DNA of 64,000 nucleotides, taken from Octopus vulgaris (lineage: Eukaryota). The stretch spans positions 144,708,001-144,772,000 of the forward strand of contig OX597818.1 in assembly GCA_951406725.2 (NCBI GenBank), read 5' to 3'. The notes beneath the pieces were generated by a model. It saw only the letters and a program-made list of their open reading frames with translations, ran no database searches and was not told the DNA's origin. The translations under genes were made by a program, and so were the position numbers. Below, piece after piece: positions 17,135-58,234 of the stretch. Position 1 is the stretch's first letter. Each line of letters opens with the position of its first letter.

Positions 17135-17144
17135 CACACATATA

Positions 17145-18270
17145 CCAGGCTGAGTAAAAAGTTAGCAACGTTTTGAAACATGAAATTCATCTCAAAGTAT
17201 TTCAACAATGCGGAAATTTTATTCATCAAAGTAACTACCATTACAATCAACACATATTTGCCAACGAGTTACAAGTTTGTTTATTCCGGTAACATAAAAT
17301 CTGGAGTTCTGTAACTGATGAACTCTTTGAACACATTTTCAGCATCGGTTTGATTTTTGAACTCCTTGTCTCACAGGAAACCATCAAGGTGCTTGAAAAA
17401 GTGGTAGGAGAAAGGTCTGAGGAATAAGCTGGGTGGGGAAGAACTTCGAAGCCAAGTTTCCATCGACTTCTGGAGCGTCATTAGTGAAACGTGTGGTCGA
17501 GCATTGTCATGAAGAATGATTGGTCCTCTTCCGCTGACCAAACGGAGGAGTAGCAATTTTTCGCTTATTTTAGCAATTTCATGGCAATATATTTCTGCAG
17601 TAATGGTTTTTCCGGGTTTTAAGAAGTTATAGTGAATGAGTCCAGCAGAACACCACCAACCAGTCACCATAACCGTCTTTTTGAAGAGCTTGGGGTTAGG
17701 GAAGGTTTTCGGTGCTTCGTTTTGGTCCGACCACTGCAAAGAAGGTGTTTTTATTTAAAAAAAAAGAAGAAAAAAACGTTTTTAGTTATTGTACAGAATC
17801 TACTTTTCATCGCAAGTTACAATACGGTCGAGAAATGGATCGGTCTGATTACGGAGAAGAAGCGACGAGCAAATTTCATATCTGCGCATTTTCTGATTTT
17901 CATTCAAATCATGTGATACCCATTTGTCGAGCTTTTTTCTTCTTGATTTTCCGATCCCATGCAAATGGTTGCAAGCAATTTTCTGGCTAACTTGAAGTTC
18001 TTTTGCCAGTTCTCGAGTGGTTTTACGTGGATCTTTCTCAATGACGGTCTTTGATTGACCGTCATTTATGACAAATGGGCGTCCACTACGCTCACGATCT
18101 TCAAGGCTCAGGCCTGTACTGCGAAATCGTTTAAACCATTTTCGAGCTAACCACACACCAAACGTTTCGTGGATTTCGAGGGCAGTTTCAGCTGCTTTAC
18201 GTCCTCTTTTGAAAATGAATAGCAAAATTGCTCGAATATCGCGATTTAACAGTTCCATTTCAGATGATTG
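17145..18270 (-). mobile_element. Decayed mariner (Mos1/SETMAR-like) transposon, 5' TIR missing
   Basis: Frameshifted transposase from ATG 18258 to stop 17219: KWVSHDL, RIVTCDEK, LHDNARPH, YSSDL, RWQICVDCNGSYFDE*. TIR follows TA at 17143-17144. Confidence 0.9.
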
Positions 18271-18277
18271 TAACAAC

Positions 18278-21200
18278 GATTTATTTATTGTCCACAGGGA
18301 ACCAAACATAGAGGGACGGTACAAATGAGGGAGGGGCTGATGGTACGTATGGTTTTTACACAGAGATGAAAAGTTAAAAATTTATTTAGATCGAATGATT
18401 AACAAAACAAATACACAAGCAATGAAGTGGGGGATGGGTTTTGCTTCGACTCCTCAAGCCCCGTGCCACCACTGTAACCTTTAGTATAACCTTATGGATA
18501 CACTATGTGGGTTCATTCATTCGCAACAAACTCGCCACAGCCTTCCATCTTTTTCTATATACATCAGGTGACAGGCATTTTCTCTTCACCCTTATTTTCC
18601 TCTTAAGGTGGTAGATGAGGTAATGGACCAGTCCAAGGCTGGAGATGAATGTTCCTGTCATGATTCCTTTCACACGGGTCTTCTATACCGCTTCTTTCGC
18701 TATAGCGACAACAGCAAGGAAACAAGCCTTGCCTTTATTGTTAAAAGAGGCAGGAAGAAAATCTTTACAATCGACTCGGAAGACAGTTGTACTCTTCCCA
18801 CCTGTGACACCGGATGTTCAATATAATCCCGCATCTCAGAGATTTTGGGGTATTGCACACTTGCATGCAGAACGGTTTCCCTGTCCTGCTCGCATCTTGG
18901 ACACGTGGGGGCACAACGGGCACCATGCTTTGCGAGTTTATCGCGAACTGGTAAGGCTCTTCAGGAAAAACTGCCAGACCAGGGATCCTTGGAAGTTGTC
19001 CCGCATGTCCTTCGAAACAAACCGGCTAGTTGGTCCCCATCGAAGCCTAGAGTCTCCCCCAGGAGGTCGGCACACTGAGCCTCTACTAACCCTCTATAGA
19101 AAGACGAGGTGGAACCCCGCTGCTGGCGTTGCCCGTGAGACAAAGAAGCCTGAGTGCCTCACAACACTCCGCTTGTCAATCACCTAACTTTGGTCTACAC
19201 TTGATCCAAGGTCCTAGTTCACTCAAACTAGTTAGCTCAGGAAGTAACGACCGAACGAACGGAGACCACACCTATTCACCGTTAAGGTAGATCCACAGAT
19301 GCCTCAACCTCAGCGCATGTCAGCGCATCAATAGCCGAAGAATCCTTAGCCCACCATTTAACGGATGCTGGCAGCAGACAGAGCACTCTACAAGAGGACT
19401 TCTACCCCTCCACAAAAAGCGGAAGAGCAGCCGCTCCAACTTGCACAGAAGCGATAAACACTCCTGCAACCTCCGCCATTCCTTTCAGGGATAGTCACCG
19501 CTCAGACCAGGTCTGAGTTAGGTGGGTCACCTCGCTCCAATTCTTCTTTATCTGGAGGTCTGCACCAAACCAAAGCCCTAGTATTTTAACCAGCCCCTCC
19601 GTCCAACGCCCAACGACGTTGTTGGGAGGTATCGTCTTGCCTCTTCAGGTGCCGGGTTGCAAGCCGACTGACTTATCCTTGTTAACTTTTGCTCCTTCCA
19701 CCGCTTCATAGTCCTTAATGGCTTTGCCTATCCTCTGTAGTTGTCCCGTCTCGGACACGATGATGGTGATGTCATCCGTGTACGCTGAAACCTTCTTACT
19801 GCAACCTAGATCGTGTGGGATGCCCCTCAAGCTCTCCAACTTCTGTAGTAAGGGCTCTAGAGCCAACACATACAGAAGGAGGGAGAGAGGAGACCCTTGA
19901 CGAAAAGAGTGCTTGATGTTGAACGGCTTCGAGAAGAACCCGTTCATCCGAACGATAGAGTCGATTTTGCTGTATAAAGCAAAGATTCACTCGCGGAAGA
20001 CGGGGCAGAGCCCGAATTCTGCGAGGGACGACACTAGAAACCGATGGTCAACCCTGTCGAAAGCTTTGGACTGGTCTAAATGGACCAGCGTTCTACCCTC
20101 GCCAGGAGATCCGTTAACCCTCTCTAAGGTGTAGCGTAGAAGGTGGAGATTGTCGTGTATGGATCTTGCAGGAAAGGCACAAGTTTGTGTCTCCCCGACG
20201 ATTCCACCCACGACACGCGCCAACCGTTTTGCATACACCTTGACCAAAATCTTCAATTTTGTGTTAAGCAGAGTGATGGGCCTGAAATTATCTATAATAA
20301 TCCCCTTGTTTGGGTCCTTTCTAATTAGCGTCACCACTTCTCGGCTCACAGAGCTGTGTATAAACCCGTTCTGTTGCCAGTTGGTGAAGACGCATTTCAG
20401 TAAGTGCCCGAACAAGTCTGATACACTCTTATAAAGCTCGTAAGGGAGACCATGTAGTTCCGGTGACTTGTCCCGCCACAGTCCGACAAAGCCTCCTGCA
20501 CCTTCGCAGCTGTGATCGGCCCCTCACAGCACACCGATTGCTGCCCCGAGAGATGCGGCATGTCAGCGAAGAAGTCTGTGAGGTTCCTCCTACATTCCAA
20601 CTCGCAGACCCTCCCATGAAGCAGGGCGAAATGCTCCTGAAAGACCTTATATATCTCTTCGGGTTCTTTTACCAAGTCTCCTTGATTATTGATCAAAGAC
20701 TTTATAGTGCCATTATTGTCACGTTGGGTCTCTATCACAGGGGCCCATCCTACGGCTTTGATTCCTTCCTGTCCCATTGCACGTTGCTTAGCTCTGACTA
20801 CGCATCCTTCGCTTTTAGCCTCGAGGTGACGGTTAAGTGCCATTCTCGCAGCAAAATATTCGGCGCGCGAAGCCAGATTCCACTGCTTCGTCTATTTTTC
20901 TTAGCCACTAATTCTTTGCTATACCTTATAGACTCAAATTTTATGGCTCTTTTGAGGGCATACCACCATTTGTTGTTAATAATGGCACCACACAATGCCC
21001 TCATCACTAACTAATCCAACTCCTGTACTCCTCATGAGCCAAAAGCAACTTATCGAATTTCCAATAGCCGAATCCCTGTCTACGTATCTAAATCCAGCCT
21101 ACAGGTCATAAATCTGTGATCAATGTAGCTGATATGGTGAAATTGTGGACGACTAACTAGGTTTTTGTCTATTTCCCTAATTAGAATCCTGTCTAGATAA

Positions 21201-21826
21201 AATCTAGATGACCCATCGCTATTAGTCCATGTCCACAACGGAACATCTAGGACATTTAGTCTGTACCTATCTGCCAGATGAAATCTACTGAGCTGATTAT
21301 TAAAGCACGGGTTTCCTCTTCTATCAGCAGACGAGCCAACGCAATCTGCGCGTGCACCGCAGAGTACGTTAAAGTCATCTAATATTACTATGGTGTGAGA
21401 TGTACCTAGAAACTTCTCCAGGCCGCGAAAAAAATCAGACTGTCTAATTTCCGAGGGAGCGTAGACAGCTACCAGCCTGAAGACCTTGCCGCTGCTTAGT
21501 GTCATTTCGAGGACGACCAACCTACCTTTCGGGTCGATGAAGATAGTTCTTGTCTCTAAATCCAGATTTTTTTCTGAGCAGCACAGCGACACTTCTCCTT
21601 CCTCCAGGTAGGCGTGGAGAAATAAATTTCTCGTAGCCATTTAAGAGGGGAAAAAACCCCGTCGACTACTCAGTCTGTACTCTGTGGCAACCACTACATC
21701 CATCCTATGCGACCTGAGGTCATTCAGGAAACGACCTTGTTTCCATTCTGCCCCCAGGCAACCTACATTTAAACAGCCAACATAAAGTTGTACTTGCCGG
21801 TTAGAGATGGGTTGCACTACTATCAC
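18278..21826 (-). mobile_element. Tx1/L1-clade LINE ORF2 (APE endonuclease and reverse transcriptase), decayed, with 3' UTR
   Basis: EN motifs CLNVGCL, LDDFN, YLDRILI, IDHRF. RT motifs NFRPITLLN, LDQSKAFDRVDH, RQGSPLS, AYTDD. Several stops and frameshifts. Ends in AATAAATAAAT. Confidence 0.93.
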
Positions 21827-21829
21827 ATT

Positions 21830-23080
21830 CTTCTATCTTTTCGTCCGATGCTTGCGAGGTATCGTTGACCTGGCCCTCAAACATTATTTGGGAACAGTTT
21901 TTCCTCAGAGGGCCTACGTCATTTTTAAAACGGTTTGCTAACATATTATAGTTAGCCTTGTCTATTTTAAGTATTGCTCTATTTTGGGTGATTTTTTCCC
22001 CTCAAAGTATTTTATAATGTTGTCTGCATTGGGAACGTTTTTTAATTGTTGCAGTAGAGATTGTTCGTCGTCTCTACTGCAGTGTAATCCATGTCAAGAT
22101 GAGATAGGAACATTTTGGTCTGGGGTTTTTGGTGGTTGTGTGTCCTGTTGGTGGCTGTTTTTCGTTTTTTTGTTTTGTTGTAGAGATTGGGTGGGGAAAG
22201 TAGTTTCCTTTTTTTTCTGGAAAATATTTCCCACTCTTCTTTGGCTCCTTCCATTTCCACTTGTTTCATTTTCAGGTGTTTCTTCATTTGTTCTTCTGTT
22301 TTCTTTTGTTTTTCCTTTTGTTTTTCGACAGCTGGGGGTAAATGCTGCTTTTTCGGGGATGGGGGTTGCACTCGGCCCTAACGTGGCCTTTTTGATAACA
22401 GTTGTAGCAACGAGGCTTCCTCTTCTCTACCATGACTCGCAGTTTAGTCTCCCCCACCTGTATAATGTTCTATAATGTTTTCTAAATCGGCAGGGGCCGC
22501 CTGTATGATCATCTCTAGTCCTTGCCCCTGCCAATTTTGCAATTCCAGTGCTGAGGCTTGGAGGATTGTAATTTTATCTTCCAAGCCGTTTATGGCTGCC
22601 ACCAGCGAAGCGGAGTCTACTTCGGGTGGGATGTCTCTTACCTTAATCTTGGAAGTCCGCCTTCAAAGATAAGTAGGTAGGAGAACCACTTCTGCAGTTT
22701 TAACGTCTCCGTCGATCTTTGTTTCGCCTTTCCCTCCGAATTAAACAGGACTTCTACTGTGACATACTTCACACCTCTTGTGATATATACCACATTATTC
22801 TAAACTGGACAGAGACACCGCAACACCGCCTCCTTACTCGCGTTGTCTAGTTTTTTTAGCTTTTACAACGAACGACTTGTAGATAACTGTACACCTTAGT
22901 GCATTATGAATAGTTTCACTGGGCGGGGTGATCACACTTTCGCTTCCCTCCCTTTTCAACATTCCTTTATATTTTCCTAATTCGTCTTTTCCACTGTTTA
23001 TTGGCCTTTTTGAAACAGTGACTGCTTCTGCAAAATTGCTTCCTTGTTTTTCCTTGCATGAAATCCTCTGTGGTTGGCAT
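21830..23080 (-). pseudogene. LINE ORF1 paralogue A (next to ORF2), CCHC knuckle
   Basis: TSKIKVRDIPPEVDSASLVAAI...KLRVMVEKRKPRCYNCYQKGHVRAEC, knuckle at 22368-22409. Frameshifted. Confidence 0.8.
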
Positions 23081-23314
23081 GTTTCTTAATTCTGTGCTAG
23101 TTTTCGATTTGATTGGAGGTTTATCCATGTTTGTGTGTTTTTTTCACAAAATATAACAATATTTTCCCCCTTCACACAAGGAGGAAAACGTTAACAAAAA
23201 ACTGCCCCAAGCAGAAAAGTAAGGTATTTTATAAAAAAAAAAACAAAAACACTAAACAAAAGTTCAATAACGTAATAATCCAACAATGTAAATTCAACAA
23301 AATATCCACAAATA

Positions 23315-24049
23315 TTACAAACTTACGCCAAACCTTTCGAACAACGTTTGTGTTACTGTCTGTGTCAGGAGGGGCAGGGAGAGGGTTGGTGACTGCAGGG
23401 GGGAAGGGTCTGACAGCATGGGATCAGGTGGGAATTCATATTTTTTCCTCAGACCTATTTTTGTTTTCCTCCTTCTTTTAGCTTGTGCCCATTGCTGCTC
23501 TTCTTCCTTCTCAGGTTCCTCCGCTTGTAGACGACTTCGCCAGAGGTGGAGGTGCGACTTTTTCTTTTGGTTCCTTTGCACTGGGCGGAGGGAATTCTGC
23601 CTTGATGTGGCCTTATCTCTTACATTTAAAATACCTGGGCATCCTGCCCTCCACCATGACTCTCAACTTGATGTCTCCGTCGACCATGATGGTCTCCACC
23701 ATCCTTTCTAGATATTCTGAGGCGGTCTGGATCAACACTTTCAGGCTCCACCCATGCCAATTTCTTGTCGGCACTCTTTGCTTTGAGGACCACAATCTGG
23801 TCCTCCATACCATGTAGGATGGTGGCTACCAGCCAGGCAACATCCACCTCAGAAGGGATTTCATCTACCCTTACCTGAGAAGTACATCTTCCCAGGTAAA
23901 TAGGTAGAAGGACCACCTCTTCCGTCTTAAGGTGAGTAACGGCATGCTGCCTCTGCGAAACTCCTTTCCATCTCTTTATCTATTTCGCTTAGACATCTCA
24001 CCAGCTCCTCCTCAGACGACGACAGGAAAGAGTAGCTAATTCTCTCCAT
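23315..24049 (-). pseudogene. LINE ORF1 paralogue B, decayed knuckle
   Basis: TSQVRVDEIPSEVDVAWLVATI...KLRVMVEGRMPRYFKCKR*GHIKAEF, knuckle at about 23592-23633. Confidence 0.75.
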
Positions 24050-24407
24050 TTTAACAGCGCTTCCCCCTTCAAACAATGGGGACAGCATTAACAAAACTGC
24101 AGTAAGACAGAAAAAACAAGTGTCTTGAGACACAACAATTAATAACAAATATAACTAACTAAGCTTTCGCACAAACAAAATTCACGATCAACTCGGTCAC
24201 ATTATTCTTTATTTTGGCACTACGGCCATAACACACAGGGGACAGCACAGGACATTACTGTGGGGACATAAAACATAGAACGAACGAATGAAAGATGAAT
24301 TATAAAATGGAGATGAAATGGCTGCATGCTCCCCACTTGCAAGCAGTATCATTCGCTTTTTGTATTAGTGTTATAGTCATTAAATTCTGAGCATTTACTT
24401 ACTTTTT

Positions 24408-25160
24408 TCACCATGTTATGTACGGTGTTAGGTCCTCATAATCTATCACTGGCGCCAAGTCATCGAACTCCACGCGTACTCCCGCTGAGTCTATCTTGTC
24501 TCCAAATAATTCTCTCAATCCTGCACATCTCTCTTGGTCAATCACAATTGTCTTGGTGCTCTCTGGATAATATTCCGTTGTTAACTTCACTCTCACTACC
24601 GACTTCATTTTGGTTATTTTCTCGTCAATTTCCACGTTTTTCGAATATGTCACCATACGCCATTTCTTTTTTGGTTCTTTTTTTTTTTGTTACTTGTTCC
24701 TGTATTTCCACTTGACTTTCTATGTTGATTTCCCTTGTTGCTATTGTTGGAATTTCCTCTGTGTCTCTTCCTGTTTATTTTCCTTCCTTTTCTTTAGTGG
24801 ACTCTTTGGCGGTGAGTCCGCGTTTTCCTTCCTTTTCTTTTTCCTATTTATCACCTTATATTCCTCCCCCACCTTCTCTGGACTTTGCTCATTCACTGGA
24901 GTCGCCACTTCGGCATTTTGCTCCTGCTCGTCAATCTGTTGCTGCTGTTCCTGTTCCCTTTTCTCGTCGTTCTGGGGGACACCCTGCTCTCATGTGTCCT
25001 CTTACTCCACATTGGTAACAGATTGGAGGTCTTCCCACCACTACTACTCTTAATTTTACTTCCTCCGGCAGTATCACCTCCTCTGTTATTTTGTGCAAGA
25101 CGAAGATCTAGAAACAGCGCCTTTTAGCTCATGTTGTTGTTGTCCTTGCTTTTAATCGCT
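24408..25160 (-). pseudogene. LINE ORF1 paralogue C, 5'-truncated, intact CCHC knuckle
   Basis: ITEEVILPEEVKLRVVVVGRPPICYQCGVRGHMRAGC, knuckle at 24979-25020. Charged tail ends DLTPYITW* at 24408. Confidence 0.75.
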
Positions 25161-27620
25161 TGTAGTGGACCTTACATGCATGAAGTGGATTCGATCCATC
25201 ATAGCCAAATTTAAATTAAGATTGCAACAGAACTTTTCTCACGGTGGAACAATGGTTTTTCTCTGACAGCAGTTTTACATTTTCCAGATGCCTTTAGTTA
25301 GGCCGAAATAATGTCTTCACCACTCAACCTACAGTGACAACGAAGTCTGGCTGACCACCTAGAACCTTGGTCAGAGTGAGAAATGAAGTTTAGTGTCAGC
25401 AACTGTGAGACAACACCCTACAACTCCCACTAGCTCTAATTCTGTTCTCTTACAACATCATTCTATCTCTCTCTGTATTTACTACTAAACAATGAAGAGG
25501 ACACAAACACAAACTTTACTTCGCATGCTTTTGGATTTATCATTAGCTGCCCGTCGAGGCAAGGTATTGTAACATAACGGTAAATAAATACTTTCTTAAA
25601 ACTTCATGCATTGTTCATCTTTCACTTCCTACAGTATGCAATTATAATTACAAATGTTTATCGTTGCAACTGCTGACTCCGGCATTTCATAATATTGTTT
25701 ACAAATCAATTTCTCCCGTTACAAGTGGTGACCCTGAACAAGAGAATTGCAGCATTCCCAAGAATCAACCGTTACAAACTGGCGACTCCAACGTTGCACC
25801 ATAACAGGCATCGCTACAAAAATAAAACTTCATCGCTTACAACTTGGCGAACCCGTGTAAAGAGAATTACTACCTTCTGATGCTAGATGCCGCTGCATTT
25901 TGCTGATTCGAACTGAAGAACTAGAATATCTACAGTCGCAAAAACAAAAGGAAAATAATGACAACCTTCGTCACCATCAAGATGCACCCTCCATCGACCT
26001 GCTACAGAAAGCACTATACTGCAATGCAATCTACGATGCACTTCACAACAATGCAACACTGCCGATGCACAAGGAATTCGCCGACCATGAAAGCCTATAA
26101 GCACAACATTTTGACAACTCAGTGCCCAGAAACTAACTGGAAGAAAATACGGAAGCCCGCACATGCAACCTTTTCGGCACACACACGCTTTTCGTCTCGT
26201 CCCGACGTACAAACCCTGCATTGTCTATGAACTTTGCACGTACATAAGACTCACACACAAACTTTCAACAACTCTTTTTCTTTGCATGCATATCTTCTTT
26301 TCACTATCAGCAGGAGACTTTTAACAAAGGACACTATTTTCAACTAAGTTGTTATTTTCGCTTATTCTATTGTCCTGTTTGCACTGCACACTTTCATTTG
26401 TTTTACGAGTTACACATATTCCACGATGCCCACATTCCACGATGCCCACATTCCACGATGCCCACATTCCGCGATGCACATATACCGCGATGCACACATT
26501 CCGCGATGCACATATACCGCGATGCACACGTTCCGCGATGCACACATTCCGCGAAGCACACATTCCGCGATGCACAAATTCTGCGACGACTCGTTTCACT
26601 AAAACAGTTAAATTCCTGTGCATATCTTTTTGAATGTTCTTTATTATTATTCATATTTTGCTTGTACATTTTTTTCGTCCACTCTGAAAATGTTTGTATT
26701 GTTTACATACACGCATGCACCTTTCCTTACAGCCTGGCCTTGCGCACGCATCTGCACACATTGTTACACACACATACGCTAACTCTGTCACATTCATGCA
26801 TAACACATGCCTTTCTCGCTTGTTTTCCATGTTCAATGCGCCCTTGTAGACACAACTCATATCTGTAAGACCCTAGGTCGGTCACGCAAACATAGAGAAA
26901 GTTGTTTATCTCTTACAATGTGCCAGCATGCCACACTTTCGCTCCTGAACGATCGAGGCATATAATACCTCATACACCGGCTGGCAGCCTCAGCCTTACT
27001 GCATTAATCTCTAGCATATTCAATACTGTACACTGTATTTGTAATCAATGCACTAGCATTAGCCTCAGCCTAGCAAGCTCTATTGCACACATGCACATGT
27101 ATCTCTATTATGCATCTACTACCTTGTTTTGCAACACGTCTGTGTCAGCTCAATTCTTCTCCCGACTCGAACAATGTCGTGTGATCACATGCTCTGCGCT
27201 CATGTTTAGACATAATTTCCCCCTGTTAGAACCCTGTTTGGTCACGTAATTAACAGAGAAAATTATATGTCTCACGCATCATTTCAGCATGCAAACAATG
27301 TCGTCCTTGCTAATTCAGTAATTACCCACGACAACAGCACCAGATGCATTTCACTGCTGAAAAACATTTCAAGGCATTTACCATGCATCTTTTTTTGTCT
27401 CCGTCGATCGTTCGTTTCCTTTCCTGGAACCTCACTGGCGAGGGGAGTGATGTAGTGGATCTTGCATGCATGAAGTCGATTCGATCCACCATAGCCAAAT
27501 TTAAATTAACACTGCAACAGAACTTTTCCCATGGTAGAACAATGGTTATTCTCTGACAGCAGTTTTACTTTTTCTAGATGCCTTTAGCTAGGCCGAAATA
27601 ATGTCTTCACCACTTGACCC
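25161..27620. repeat. Pair of ~165-bp direct repeats (25161-25330 and 27451-27620)
   Basis: Both read TGTAGTGGAYCTTRCATGCATGAAGT.GATTCGATCCA...GGCCGAAATAATGTCTTCACCACT. Confidence 0.85.
26413..26590. repeat. 16-bp minisatellite CCGCGATGCACACATT, about 11 units
   Basis: Tandem units visible directly, with variants CCACGATGCCCACATT and CCGCGATGCACATATA. Confidence 0.9.
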
Positions 27621-27818
27621 TTTCTAACCTCTTCTACTTCACCAAAAGCTAGAATAGAGATAACAAGACCACCAACTAAATCTATTGTTCTCAATGATAT
27701 ATCTATCATTCTGGATAGTTACAAAAGCAAGAACACCCCAAGCAAAACTCAGTCGGTGACGACTCAACGAGTTCAGTCACATGGTAACGACTTAACCAGT
27801 TTGTCGCGTACACACACA

Positions 27819-39382: not shown

Positions 39383-39944
39383 CATCATCATCATCATCAT
39401 CATCGTTTAGCGTCCGCTTTCCATGCTAGCATGGGTTGGACGGGTCAACTGGGGTCTGTGAAGCTGGAAGGCTTCGTCAGGCCCAGTCAGATCTGGCAGT
39501 GTTTCTACGGCTGGATGCCCTTCCTAACGCCAACCACTCCGCGAGTGTAGTGGGTGTTTTTTACGTGCCACCTGCACAGGTGCCAGACAGAGCTGGCGAA
39601 CGGCCACAAACGGATGGTGCTTTTACGTGTCACATGCACGGGGCCAGACAGAGCTGGCAACCGGCCACGAACGGACGGTGCTTTTACGTGTCACCGGCAC
39701 GGGGGCCAGCCGAGGCTGGCAACGGACATGGACGGATGGTGCTTTTACGTGCCACCGACACGGGGCCAGACAGAGCTGGCAAACGGCCACGAGCGGACGG
39801 TGCTTTTACGTGTCACCGGCACGGGGGCCAGCCGAGGCTGGCAACGGACACGGACGGATGGTGCTTTTACGTGCCACCGACACGGGGCCAGACAGAGCTG
39901 GCAAACGGCCACGAACGGATGGTGCTTTTACGTGCCACCGACGT
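39383..39944 (-). mobile_element. Retroposon with (ATG)n tail and an internal ~60-bp tandem array, nested in a SINE
   Basis: AAGAT TSD at 39378-39382 and 39945-39949 splits a SINE head. Related shorter copy at about 42114-42420. Confidence 0.75.
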
Positions 39945-42718
39945 AAGATAGTGTTTTCAATTCCCAAACCAGCATGTGTGTTATGTTCTTGACCAAAACA
40001 CTTGATTTCATGTTGCTCCAGTCCATTCAGCTGTAAATGGATAACTCCGTAATGGACTGACATTCTGTTCAGGGAAATGTTGGCCTGGTCACACAGCCAG
40101 CTGGGTGGCAACATTTGAAAGCTACAATGATGCAAGGAACACATTGTGACCAGTTGTGTATAACAACTTCTGATGTGGATACAGTAATATAGATAGACAG
40201 ACAGACAGACTTGTAAGACAAAGGCCCCTTGGCTGGGAGAGAGAGAGAGAGAGAGGGAGGTGGCTTTGTAACTGTTGAGAGGTTAAAGCATAATAAAGGG
40301 ATAGAGATAAGTGTCTTACTATAGAGGAGATATTTGGCTATATAGGAAAAGAAAGGATAGGAAAGTGAGATAGGGAGAAAGATAGAGACAAACAGAGTGA
40401 GGGAGAGAGAAATAGATGGTGTTGGAGATGTATTGGGAGGGACATACAAGATACAGTGGGGGTGGATGTAAGTGGTACAAAGGAGATAGAGGGGTATTGT
40501 TTCATAAGAGTCTAAGGGGAGATGCTTAGGAATGGAGAAGATGTGATTGTAGCAAGTGATGGTGAGAAATTGGAGTGACTGGTGGGGGTAGTAGATATGT
40601 GAGGGAGAGTGGAGGGGTCTGCAGCAGGTGGTGATCATGGGTAGGGGAAAGAGGTGTTGGGAAGATTGGTTTTGGAGGAGTCTTGACAGGAGACAGATTG
40701 TGTATGTGTGGTGGGCATGGCTGTAAAGGACCTGCCTGTATGGTCACAATTTGATTTAGCTTGGTGTGTCTTCTCAAGCACAGCAAATTGCCAGTTGTCT
40801 CGGTCTCTTCTTATCTCCTCTATGAGGCTCAGCTGAGGACCATTTCTCATCACTATGTCCTACTGAGACTGGTGCCACATCAAAGCACCATTAGGGCACC
40901 CAGTACATTCTGTAAAGTGGTTGGCATTAGGAAGGGCATTCAGTTGCAGAAACTATGCCAAAGCAGACAAAGGAGCCTGGTGAGCTGCTCTAGCTTATCA
41001 GCTCCTATGAAACTGTCCAACCCATACCAGCATGGAAAGCAGATGTTAAATGGTGATGATGGTGATTAGTAATAACATTTTTACTTTGTTGAAAACTCAT
41101 TTTTAGTATATACATTCCATAAATTTATATGGACACCAATTATAGGGTGTGATTTATATATGGTGTTCTTGTTCCTACCTATATTCCTTCCTTGCACTTT
41201 CAAAAGTAACTTCATGGTGTAGTTATGGTGTAAGCTTGATTCATTAAAAGATTAACTCAAAGATTTCTTTTTTGCACTACAAATTTTATTGTTACTTCAC
41301 TTTTAAACAATCTTAACTGTAAAATGAAATCAAAGATTTGAAGCAGCAATGTGAAAGGATTAGAGAATAATGAGGATGGGAACATGGGAGAAAGGAGAGC
41401 CAACAGAATTGAGTGTATTGCTACAATGGTAAAGTTTGACTACTGCTGCTGTTACAGACTTATCCTGGTAACTTCACTCTTTGATGTTTTTACATCAGTA
41501 TAAGGAAGCTCAAAATTTCAGGAAAATATCTGAAACTATAAAGGTACAATTTTCTTTGCCTCATTTTGAAACAAAGTTGCTACACCTGAAAGAAAAGGAC
41601 TTTATTGTTTGAGGATATAAGTATAGACAATGAAACAATTTTATGAAGATTTGTAAATTTGTGCATCAATATAGGAGTAAGAAAATGTATAAAATGTGGA
41701 ATTCCAGATGGTCCCACATTTAGTCTCTATAATTCTTATTGTTACTAGTGTAACCATTCTTAAAAATGATATATAGTAACTTTTGATAATACTTGAAGCA
41801 TCTATTTTTCTTTCTTTCCATCAAAATGACTACTAACTCCTTCATATCATACATATACCTTTACCAATTTTACCATACCAACAAGGCTGGCATGTTCTGT
41901 GTAGGACTATTATCTGCTATATTCTTTTTTTTTTTTAAGGTGTGGGAGATTTGGCTGCTCTCTCTAGCAGTCTCATTGATTACCTCTATTCTGTTTAGAG
42001 TAATCATTTTTACACATGGTTACCTTTTTTTACAGCTTGCCACTCAATCATGAAATGCAAGTGGAATTTAAACTAGAGTAGACAGTGTTATGTAACTTAC
42101 TTTGGGTCACTACATCATCATCATCATCATTTAGCGTCCGTTTTCCATGCTAGCATGGGTTGGACGGTTCTGCTGGGGTCTGTGAAGCCAGAAGGCTTCA
42201 TCAGGCCCAGTCAAATCTGGCAGTGTTTCTACGGCTGGATGCCCTTCCTAACGCCAACCACTCCGTGAGTGTAGTGGGTGCTTTTACGTGCCACCCGCAC
42301 TGGTGCCAGCCAGAGCTGGCAAACGGCCACGAACGGATGGTGTTTTTTATGTGCCACCGGCACGAGGGCCAGGCGAGGCTGGCAACGAACACGAAACGGG
42401 GCGGTGCTGGCAACGATGGAAGTGGTGAGCTTAGAAATTATGATTCGTTCGTTTTATGTCAGTCTTTCTATGCTAGTATGGGTTAGGTGAATTCTATATT
42501 ATTGAGACATTGTTTTACAGCTTAATGCCTTTCCTGTCTCTATCTATTTTTCAAGTAAGGGATCTCCCATTCCACAAGTTTTCTTATGTGCAGTGCCAGT
42601 GAATGATTTATTGGTGGAGAAAAACAACCAATTTCACCACTTTTGTAGCTCAGCAGCTTTTCATGCAAAGTATGTAGAATGTAACCATTCACACACGCAC
42701 GCTCTCTCTCTGTCTCTA

Positions 42719-48897: not shown

Positions 48898-49226
48898 AGC
48901 AGAAAGATTGGGTTTTACCCTTATATGATAGAAAAAGTTATCAACTGTTTCCATGGTTATACTGCATTTGAGATATTCCTTTTTTGTTTGTATGATACAC
49001 ATTCGATGTTTCCAAAAAAAAAAAAAATGCTTGTTTATATGAATTGTTGCATTTCAAATATTGCTATGTATTTAGTGTTTAATTGGACAGGGATTGTTGT
49101 CAGGGGGCAATCTAGCTTAATGGTTGAGTACTCAGCTGGTATCTGAGACGTGTAGGTTCAAGTCCTGAGGCTGTCTGATGACAACTTTTTCTATCATATA
49201 AGGGTAAAATACCCAATCTTTCTGCT
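48898..49226. repeat. ~46-bp inverted repeat enclosing a tRNA-like sequence (49105-49176)
   Basis: Arms at 48898-48944 and 49179-49226. Inside are A box TAGCTTAATGGT, stem-loop CTCAG-CTGGTAT-CTGAG and B box GGTTCAAGTCC. Confidence 0.7.
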
Positions 49227-56935: not shown

Positions 56936-57294
56936 GTAAGCAGTACCTGTTTATATTATATTTATGTTTGTGTGTTCCTGTGTGCACACTTACTTGAGCA
57001 CAGTGATACAATGACAAATGCACAACTGTGTAAAGACACAGAGGCAAATGTTCACATAGATCAATGTGTGTGTGTGTATATTTACAAAGCAGTATGAGTT
57101 AGCATGTGGATTACTGTTGGTTTTGTGGTCTTGTTCCACAGAATCTGCTTGACTTGATGTTACAGAAATTTTCCATACTGCATAATTATGCAGTGGCCTG
57201 AAGAGTGAAACAACAAAACTATCAACAATCTGCATGATAAATTAACTTAGATTGCCTTATATCTCTGTATTAAGTAATATATATATATATATAT

Positions 57295-57663
57295 AAAAAA
57301 ATACAAAGTGGGACAAGAATGCAAAACATTCAAATAGATGATACAAAAAACACGGATGGGTCATTCGAAGCCTCTAATCTTCAGTCAAGAACCGGATCAT
57401 CCTCACAATTTCAGCTGATTAATCTTGAGATTGCTCCGATCTGGCCAGCGTGTACATTTGATCCTTTTTCCAAGAAATCTAATGCGCGTAGCTTAGTTTT
57501 TCCTTGGGGCTGGCCAGATCGGAGCAATCTCAAGATTAATCAGCCGAAATTGTGAGGATGATCCGGTTCTTGTCTGAAGATTAGAGGCTTCGAATGACCC
57601 GTCCATGTTTTTTGTATCGTCTATTTGAATGTTTTGCGTTCTTGCCCCATTTTGTATTTTTAT
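57295..57663. repeat. ~155-bp inverted repeat with a 59-nt loop in DHRS7B intron 2
   Basis: Arms at about 57295-57449 and 57509-57663. ORF-track entries on opposite strands are near-identical. Confidence 0.9.
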
Positions 57664-58234
57664 ACATATATTATTGTGGCGTACGTACACCTTATTCTCT
57701 TATATGTAAATATATATATATATTTATGATGTGTTCCCTGCAAGTATGAATCAAACACTTTGTTTTCATCATCATTTTATAACAATATATGCACACACAC
57801 ACACACATATATATACAGAGAGAGAGAGAGAGGTGTCTGATTAAGAAGTTCATCTCCCAACCACATGATTTTGGGTTCAATTCTACTGTGTGGTAAAATA
57901 TATAATATTGATAATAAAGGGAATGAAGAATTTGAACCTTCAAACTTTGTTTATTTACACTTGTTTTATTCATAATAATTGTCTGCCCCGTGTTTTTGAT
58001 CTCATTAATTGCATTTTGTTGCATATTTATATGCAGCAAATTATGCATTATTAGTACAATCTCTTCAGGGTGTATGAATATAACATTGTTTGAAGAAGAA
58101 TTTTCCTCTGTTATTAGTTTGAATTAGGCTTGGTAGCAGTAATAGCAAACCATGACGGTCATCAATGAGCTTCGGTATCTGCCTGGATATTATATCCCTC
58201 CTACTACTATATATATATATATAATATCCTAGCA

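Follow-up and report, generated by a model that had tools for sequence, protein, structure and literature searches.

The window analyzed here, a 64,000-nt (64-kb) stretch of Octopus vulgaris DNA, carries on its minus strand three ORF1 units, in the order C, B, and A, followed by one broken ORF2 with endonuclease, reverse transcriptase and zf-RVT regions (EN-RT-zf-RVT). As putative members of one element, three ORF1 units before a single ORF2 depart from the one-ORF1-per-element layout of L1/Tx1 retrotransposons. The C-B-A-ORF2 feature is real, and it reflects old paralogy rather than recent duplication. The LINE copy itself is dead, because stops or frameshifts are present in every ORF; its value consequently lies in the family and not in the locus. 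What is concluded about the family is indirect, being drawn from one decayed copy and a number of hints. The features of the locus are summarized in Table 1.

Table 1. Features of the LINE locus and of the insertion that cuts it (positions within the window)
Feature	Position	Strand	Remarks
LINE 3' UTR	18285..18502	-	Ends in AATAAATAAA; adjoins 5'-truncated mariner-like element
ORF2	18503..21832	-	APE endonuclease, RT, zf-RVT (Pfam); stops and frameshifts
Unit A, full-length ORF1	21801..23128	-	FAEA, predicted RRM-like core, one CCHC, charged tail, C-terminal domain
B-A spacer	23129..23314	-	T-rich; candidate acceptor CAG 23202; motif ~23164-23250
Unit B, ORF1	23315..24088	-	~300-nt internal deletion after FAEA, decayed knuckle, Pro-rich tail
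C-B spacer	24089..24407	-	GTAAGT 24402; terminus-like GGCCGTAGTGCC and AATAAA 24227-24208; T-rich; candidate acceptor CAG 24097; motif ~24061-24150
Unit C, C-terminal half of ORF1	24408..25160	-	CCHC, charged tail, conserved C-terminal domain to stop
LTR-like element cutting C	25161..27614	+	Starts TGTAGTGG; boundaries read from sequence

The KLRV motif starts at 22445 in unit A, 23669 in B, and 25056 in C, and a search of the whole window in six frames for KLRV.V..R.P returned these three matches only. The CCHC knuckle is intact in A (22409) and C (25020) and decayed in B. A, B, and C were all matched by a profile built from 48 outside relatives, which had no further convincing match in the window; two weak matches at 6.5-6.7 kb covered the charged tail only. 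With the KLRV and CCHC positions, tblastx and the outside-relative profile in agreement, the claim of the initial annotation that three signature-bearing units lie 5' of the EN-RT ORF2 on the same strand was confirmed. No similarity to EN or RT was found between the ORF1 units in the window. The locus is internal to the window, with ordinary repeats on both sides.

In ORF2, Pfam identified RVT_1 (E 3.5e-12 and 1.7e-11), zf-RVT (E 2e-4), and, upstream of RVT_1, Exo_endo_phos at E 0.003, which is below the curated cut-off. The APE endonuclease lies N-terminal to the RT, colinear with intact relatives. Octopus RTs bearing the DQSKAFD motif and its flanking motifs are assigned to L1-Tx1 in 5/5 of the rows consulted in Table S7 of PMC10294476, with likeness judged by eye. 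These motifs support the placement of the window ORF2 in the L1-Tx1 group, as had been proposed. When the LINE 3' end was compared with the termini of intact relatives, it scored highest of 344 element windows, and seven background windows elsewhere scored higher. Directly behind it lies a mariner-like transposon remnant (17144-18284; ORF 17800-18381, minus strand), the other terminal repeat of which was not found in the window. According to the available part of PMC4494074, many Tx1 families have a target-sequence preference, and for some crocodilian families the target is a mariner. The window holds one LINE copy, with its 5' end lost and a mariner-like element as its 3' flank.

Unit A overlaps the start of ORF2, and a diverged contig (X1 record 5) spans the A tail and the endonuclease. 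On account of this overlap and of the contig joining both, the assignment of A as the ORF1 of the window ORF2 is supported at the sequence level. The sequence GCAAGT occurs 3 nt past the stop of A. A lead toward a predicted RRM fold in the ORF1 core came from an ESM Atlas match to ZCCHC3 RNA-binding domains (0.90); a PDB sequence search yielded matches to knuckles and charged tails only. A hairpin upstream of the unit was supported in A (z -2.7), not in B (z -0.25).

The distance between FAE and VLLP is 110-117 aa in full-length relatives (5 proteins; a sixth, P0154, was left out as a spurious match) and ~114 aa in unit A, but only ~13 aa in unit B, which has therefore lost ~300 nt. The N-terminal FAEA motif described as common to A and B is indeed homologous. 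A contig (X17) that covers 23751-24032 with eight differences and no gap accordingly shares the deletion, which is no evidence of transcription. GTAAGT is found at 23326, within the last codons of B. No target-site duplication was found around B in the window, and neither the terminus motif described below nor AATAAA was found between B and A.

The N-terminal half of unit C is absent from the window. For its C-terminal domain, the ESM Atlas gave no usable match. The LTR-like element that cuts C has a primer-binding-site-like TGGTGACCC at 25726 and a purine tract at 27437-27450. Its first 164 nt are repeated at 27451 (92%), and the terminal copies match over 164 nt only. The LTR-like region (25161-27810) contains a 16-bp tandem repeat (26400-26600), and no long ORF was seen in it. 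The earlier description of three paralogues thus holds insofar as three real ORF1s are present; it does not hold for complete units, as C is represented by its C-terminal half and B is internally deleted.

Similarity between the units was highest for A and B (tblastx E 1.9e-20), followed by A and C (E 1.7e-7) and B and C (E 6e-4). At the DNA level, A and B are 61% identical over 340 nt. Over 97 gap-free codons they differ 31, 22, and 57 times at codon positions 1, 2, and 3 (p 5e-5), and dS amounts to ~2.6 with a dN of ~0.33, in blocks that were picked by protein similarity, which flatters the ratio. This comparison supports an old divergence of A and B under apparent purifying selection, and the third-position excess together with dS and dN bears out the statement that the array is not a recent tandem duplication. 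In a tree of 58 of the 153 cores, in which deep nodes are weak and C contributes 47 residues, the three units fell into different clades and were not sisters. The paralogues split long ago, while they were working proteins, a history as compatible with a single old element as with separate families. Tail type did not follow the core clades cleanly in the same tree, and an arrangement of A, B, and C as three neat classes was rejected for this mismatch. The C-terminal domains of A and C are distantly homologous (hhalign E 2e-5, probability 77%) and the end of C resembles the O. bimaculoides protein P0002 (43%), contrary to the view that each tail is unrelated to the others. A candidate similarity between the ORF1 end of the arrays described next and the C-terminal domain of A was rejected (0/49 by profile; hhalign E 0.054).

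Intact relatives of the window LINE were found by an RT motif scan, which gave 66 loci (L081-L146) on 16 contigs of record CAXXMW01. This record is titled as a bacterial MAG and holds animal-type Tx1 arrays, near-intact and with a period of 6.3-7.0 kb; the loci look like host DNA binned into a bacterial genome. Contig 8 has, besides its first unit, 11 that bear ORF1 or are truncated. The array ORF1 was matched by the octopus profile with E values down to 4e-23, and the RT is 46-47% identical to that of the window. The arrays further resemble the window LINE in the ORF1 core with its knuckle, the stop-adjacent GT(A/G)AGT and the terminus motif; they differ from it in their near-intact ORFs, in a 3' UTR of 689-733 nt versus ~220 nt here, and in the strict alternation of ORF1 and ORF2. 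One ORF1 per ORF2, head to tail, was found throughout (64 ORF1 cores, 48 neighbour gaps, the smallest 6270 nt), with ORF1-ORF1 neighbours in 0/48 gaps; where members are truncated, it is ORF1 that is missing, whereas ORF2 is retained. Because of this one-to-one order, ordinary stacking gives no ORF1-ORF1 arrangement. The arrays mix subtypes, with the ORF1 core at 57-100% and the ORF2 parts mostly at 91-100% identity to references, one divergent family apart. Among the subfamilies, ORF1 and the 5' UTR differ far more than ORF2.

All 33 full array units end in GGCC-n2-GTGCC...AATAAA, a pattern that was counted with two to four spacer bases. In 31/33 units a GT(A/G)AGT lies no more than 15 nt from the ORF1 stop, and in 29/33 one lies no more than 40 nt from that of ORF2. 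The donor consensus TAAG/GTAAGT was seen 1 nt past the ORF1 stop in 31/33 (L084 and other array loci), and a 5' UTR donor in 22/33. This donor-like site after the stops may regulate ORF2 output or polyadenylation. A set of 80 metagenome loci was distant (top matches 37-45%) and contained the terminus motif in 0/80 cases. ORF1-ORF1 order was found in none of the 16 metagenome loci that were checked for knuckles upstream of the RT; in L016, RT pieces lie between two knuckle clusters, and in L009 the second cluster lies inside the ORF2 region. L016 and L017 comprise several decayed Tx1-like elements in tandem, with ORF2 remnants between the ORF1s.

The two spacers in the window are ~190 nt (B-A) and ~320-360 nt (C-B) long. 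Both end in a shared ~85-nt motif (score 64 versus 28 +/- 4.7, reached by 0/300 shuffles) with a pyrimidine-rich CAG; among 217 YAG sites scored as candidate acceptors, 24097 ties for first and 23202 for eighth place. On the sense strand of the element GT(A/G)AGT is found at two sites only, the ends of C and B. Across both strands of the 64-kb window, the terminus pattern was matched a single time, at a site one base longer and 180 nt past the stop of C; it was obtained in 0/5000 shuffles of the C-B spacer. Because of this motif, C looks like a finished ORF1-only unit. When the end of C was instead aligned with the array termini, it scored 23.3 (mean 18.8, sd 3.0) and was outside the top 12 of 344. 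The C-B spacer is unlike the LINE's own 3' UTR, the score being reached by 66/300 shuffles. The sequence 5' of B bears a resemblance to array 5' UTRs, with scores reached by 0/100 shuffles for 4/10 of them and by at least 9 for 4/10. An array 5' UTR profile had no match in the window, and Rfam had none in the spacers or in three array loci.

The profile search for ORF1 relatives returned 230 sequences at E <= 0.001, of which 150 were listed. Among 30 relatives examined, the species-named ones (13 and one cluster member) were all from Octopus bimaculoides, O. sinensis, O. vulgaris or Argonauta hians. The zf-CCHC family was matched in 11/48 relatives, and two or more complete ORF1 cores in one relative were found in 0/153 scanned. 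Protein word searches with window fragments gave no match, and a 36-sequence alignment query retrieved three proteins; no match was obtained in viral contigs, or in genome contigs searched with P0003. This ORF1 also forms part of the gene models P0053 and P0142; in one of them its tail is duplicated, and in the other it is joined to a helicase that by eye looks like that of a Helitron. These structures are probably annotation artefacts.

Contigs from three DNA runs contain diverged copies: X1 record 5 carries the A tail, X4 record 27 unit B, and X1 record 7 unit C. These show 12-14% substitutions, and over the diverged copies of A, B, and C the difference from the window is 12-17%, about as in ORF2 copies. 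A contig from organism B is 97% identical to the window, and the sequence suggests that the window insertion is present in a second species. The 32 longest of ~48,000 pieces included none that spans B-A or the C-B spacer in full. One contig (X14) joins the end of C (24429) to the spacer (24347), its short side being 26 nt; in it, C is followed by non-coding DNA. The B-type copy in X4 record 27 stops matching at 23347, a further 86 nt being unaligned, and P0013, likewise B-type, stops at 23355-23363. These ends carry little weight, because contigs also cease to align within ORF2 and within unit C, and they are a weak hint of a local B-A junction near 23350. In the three DNA runs, read depth at 23100 was 87, 54, and 0; at 22732, depth in X1 was zero. 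Both dips were set aside, since such holes occur even where the locus should be present.

In O. bimaculoides, XP_052823997/8 is C-like (57% over the knuckle region) and XP_052823999 is B-like (50%). Their accessions are consecutive and their contigs equal in size, but their LOC numbers are distant (106876213, 106871568); the two have different cores, 31% identical. By our own estimate, based on three loci and a series of at least 4,252 numbers, a consecutive pair would arise with a chance of ~0.3% if the order were random. The pair is a hint that C-B may recur in O. bimaculoides.

Our leading explanation, held with about even confidence, is that ORF1-only modules (C and B) were stacked before an ordinary A-ORF2 element. 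Unit A and ORF2 would be the core, a Tx1 element of the usual kind, and C and B would be old passenger modules copied in trans by a Tx1 RT. Loss of ORF2 between two stop-adjacent sites would leave, much as in HAL1 or HeT-A, an ORF1 and a brief 3' UTR, and C would then consist of an ORF1, a stop-adjacent site, ~190 nt of 3' UTR and a terminus. Such modules, C alone or C-B, could have spread and landed head to tail before related elements. B would be either a second passenger whose end was lost or one half of a mobile C-B pair, and the junction near 23350 would be particular to the window locus or to few loci. The passenger explanation agrees with the lack of any ORF2 remnant between the units and with C, which carries a terminus-like motif and GTAAGT as array units do. 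Also on its side are the mixing of ORF1 subtypes in the arrays, the sequence 5' of B, the B-type matches that stop near 23350, the separate clades of A, B, and C, and the X14 contig. It is weakened by the arrays, in which no ORF1-only member was seen and which are a different family from the window LINE, and by unit B, for which neither a terminus nor a target-site duplication was found. Also against it are the unremarkable alignment score of the C end, the lack of likeness between the C-B spacer and the LINE's own 3' UTR, and the array 5' UTR profile that had no match.

Possible, but less probable, is a Tx1 family in which C-B-A-ORF2, perhaps with more, forms a fixed unit, which probably would have arisen when an array was stripped of its inner ORF2s and persisted in that form. 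The spacers could tentatively be read as retained introns, with ribosome re-initiation and with the unspliced RNA as template. Each is bracketed by GTAAGT at the upstream stop and by a pyrimidine-rich CAG before the next ORF, and both are short and share the ~85-nt motif. Splicing from 24402 to 24097 would remove the poly(A) signal and place the ATG of B (24088, in frame) 13 nt past the C stop, near the 14-nt gap between ORF1 stop and ATG in intact relatives. A fixed unit would also suit the consecutive C-like and B-like O. bimaculoides models and the similar divergence of A, B, C, and ORF2 copies. The distant LOC numbers of that pair, however, count against it, as do the listed contigs, none of which bridges B-A or the whole C-B spacer, the relatives scanned (0/153 with two complete cores), and the intact relatives seen, which all have a single ORF1. 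GT(A/G)AGT lies next to the stop in single-ORF1 relatives too, and hence needs no polycistronic role. The fullest version, a polycistronic octopod Tx1 element with at least three diverged ORF1s, spliced GT-AG spacers, alternative polyadenylation and mixed-ORF1 particles, is a conjecture from the sequence that we hold at clearly less than even confidence. Of the old, maintained triplication proposed in the initial annotation, the Tx1 identity, the age of the paralogues and the pairing of A with ORF2 stood; joint mobility of C-B-A-ORF2 is putative, no listed contig bridging B-A or the whole C-B spacer, as are a four-cistron transcript and specialised RNP subunits. We regard it as unlikely that the locus is a mere accident, in which three Tx1 families were arrayed head to tail, or joined in a template-switch chimera, and the two upstream ORF2s deleted; in that case B and C would each have an ORF2 of their own elsewhere. 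Relatives do form mixed arrays, decay of the copy is advanced, B being internally deleted and C interrupted by an insertion, and no listed contig bridges B-A. Two removals would nonetheless be needed, both ending at an ORF1 stop and leaving no trace of ORF2, and neither the consecutive RefSeq models nor the contig joining the C end to the spacer would be explained.

HeT-A and TART belong to the Jockey clade. In that system, as given in the available part of PMC2173066, the HeT-A Gag recruits the TART Gag, and TART supplies the RT; related Gag or ORF1 proteins on array-forming elements, one partner having an RT, are the likeness to the present case and offer a model of how ORF1 paralogues might act jointly. 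In contrast, HeT-A/TART is telomere-specific, nothing telomeric was found at the window locus, and cooperation of ORF1 proteins here would be by analogy. HAL1, or half-L1, is described in the consulted section of PMC5753468 as non-autonomous and encoding ORF1p only. C and B are likewise ORF1s without an ORF2 behind, C being followed by a terminus-like motif and AATAAA; but HAL1 is mammalian and derived from L1 proper, B has no terminus, and C and B as independent insertions are putative.

L1/Tx1 elements have one ORF1 and one ORF2, with very variable ORF1 domains (PMC5203782, as far as accessible). The Tx1 clade (Tx1L, Keno, Kibi, Koshi, Tx1-Mar; O.sinensis_125_LINE in the accessible part of PMC10294476) resembles the window LINE in its APE, RT and zf-RVT and in a CCHC ORF1 overlapping the ORF2 start, whereas the window has three ORF1 paralogues, with one knuckle per ORF1. 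Octopus LINEs are recorded in PMC10294476, PMC8967140, and PMC9115989, the first two including L1-Tx1; in the available parts of these three, no description of the ORF1 layout was found, and the available part of PMC4120745 makes no mention of ORF1 duplication. The curated library in supplementary file 24 of PMC10294476 has no octopus labels in the 354,229 characters covered. No multi-ORF1 Tx1 element or cephalopod ORF1-only element was found in the openly accessible literature, searched at the level of listings and abstract openings, and a consensus may already be catalogued.

As far as these searches reached, either of the two leading explanations would be new for molluscs. Passenger modules that stack in arrays would extend the kind of system known from HAL1 and HeT-A beyond mammals and flies, and a fixed unit would be a LINE that keeps several ORF1 paralogues. 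Under both, the family would lend itself to the questions of why LINEs vary most in ORF1 and of whether different ORF1 proteins within a single particle cooperate or interfere. The donor-like site past the stops of the intact relatives suggests a testable route to the balance of ORF1 and ORF2 output.

Elsewhere in the window, a 61-bp tandem repeat family was observed at 39518-40003 and 42282-42410. In addition, an inverted repeat of 163 nt lies at 57287-57671, and 49106-49176 gave a tRNA-like match.
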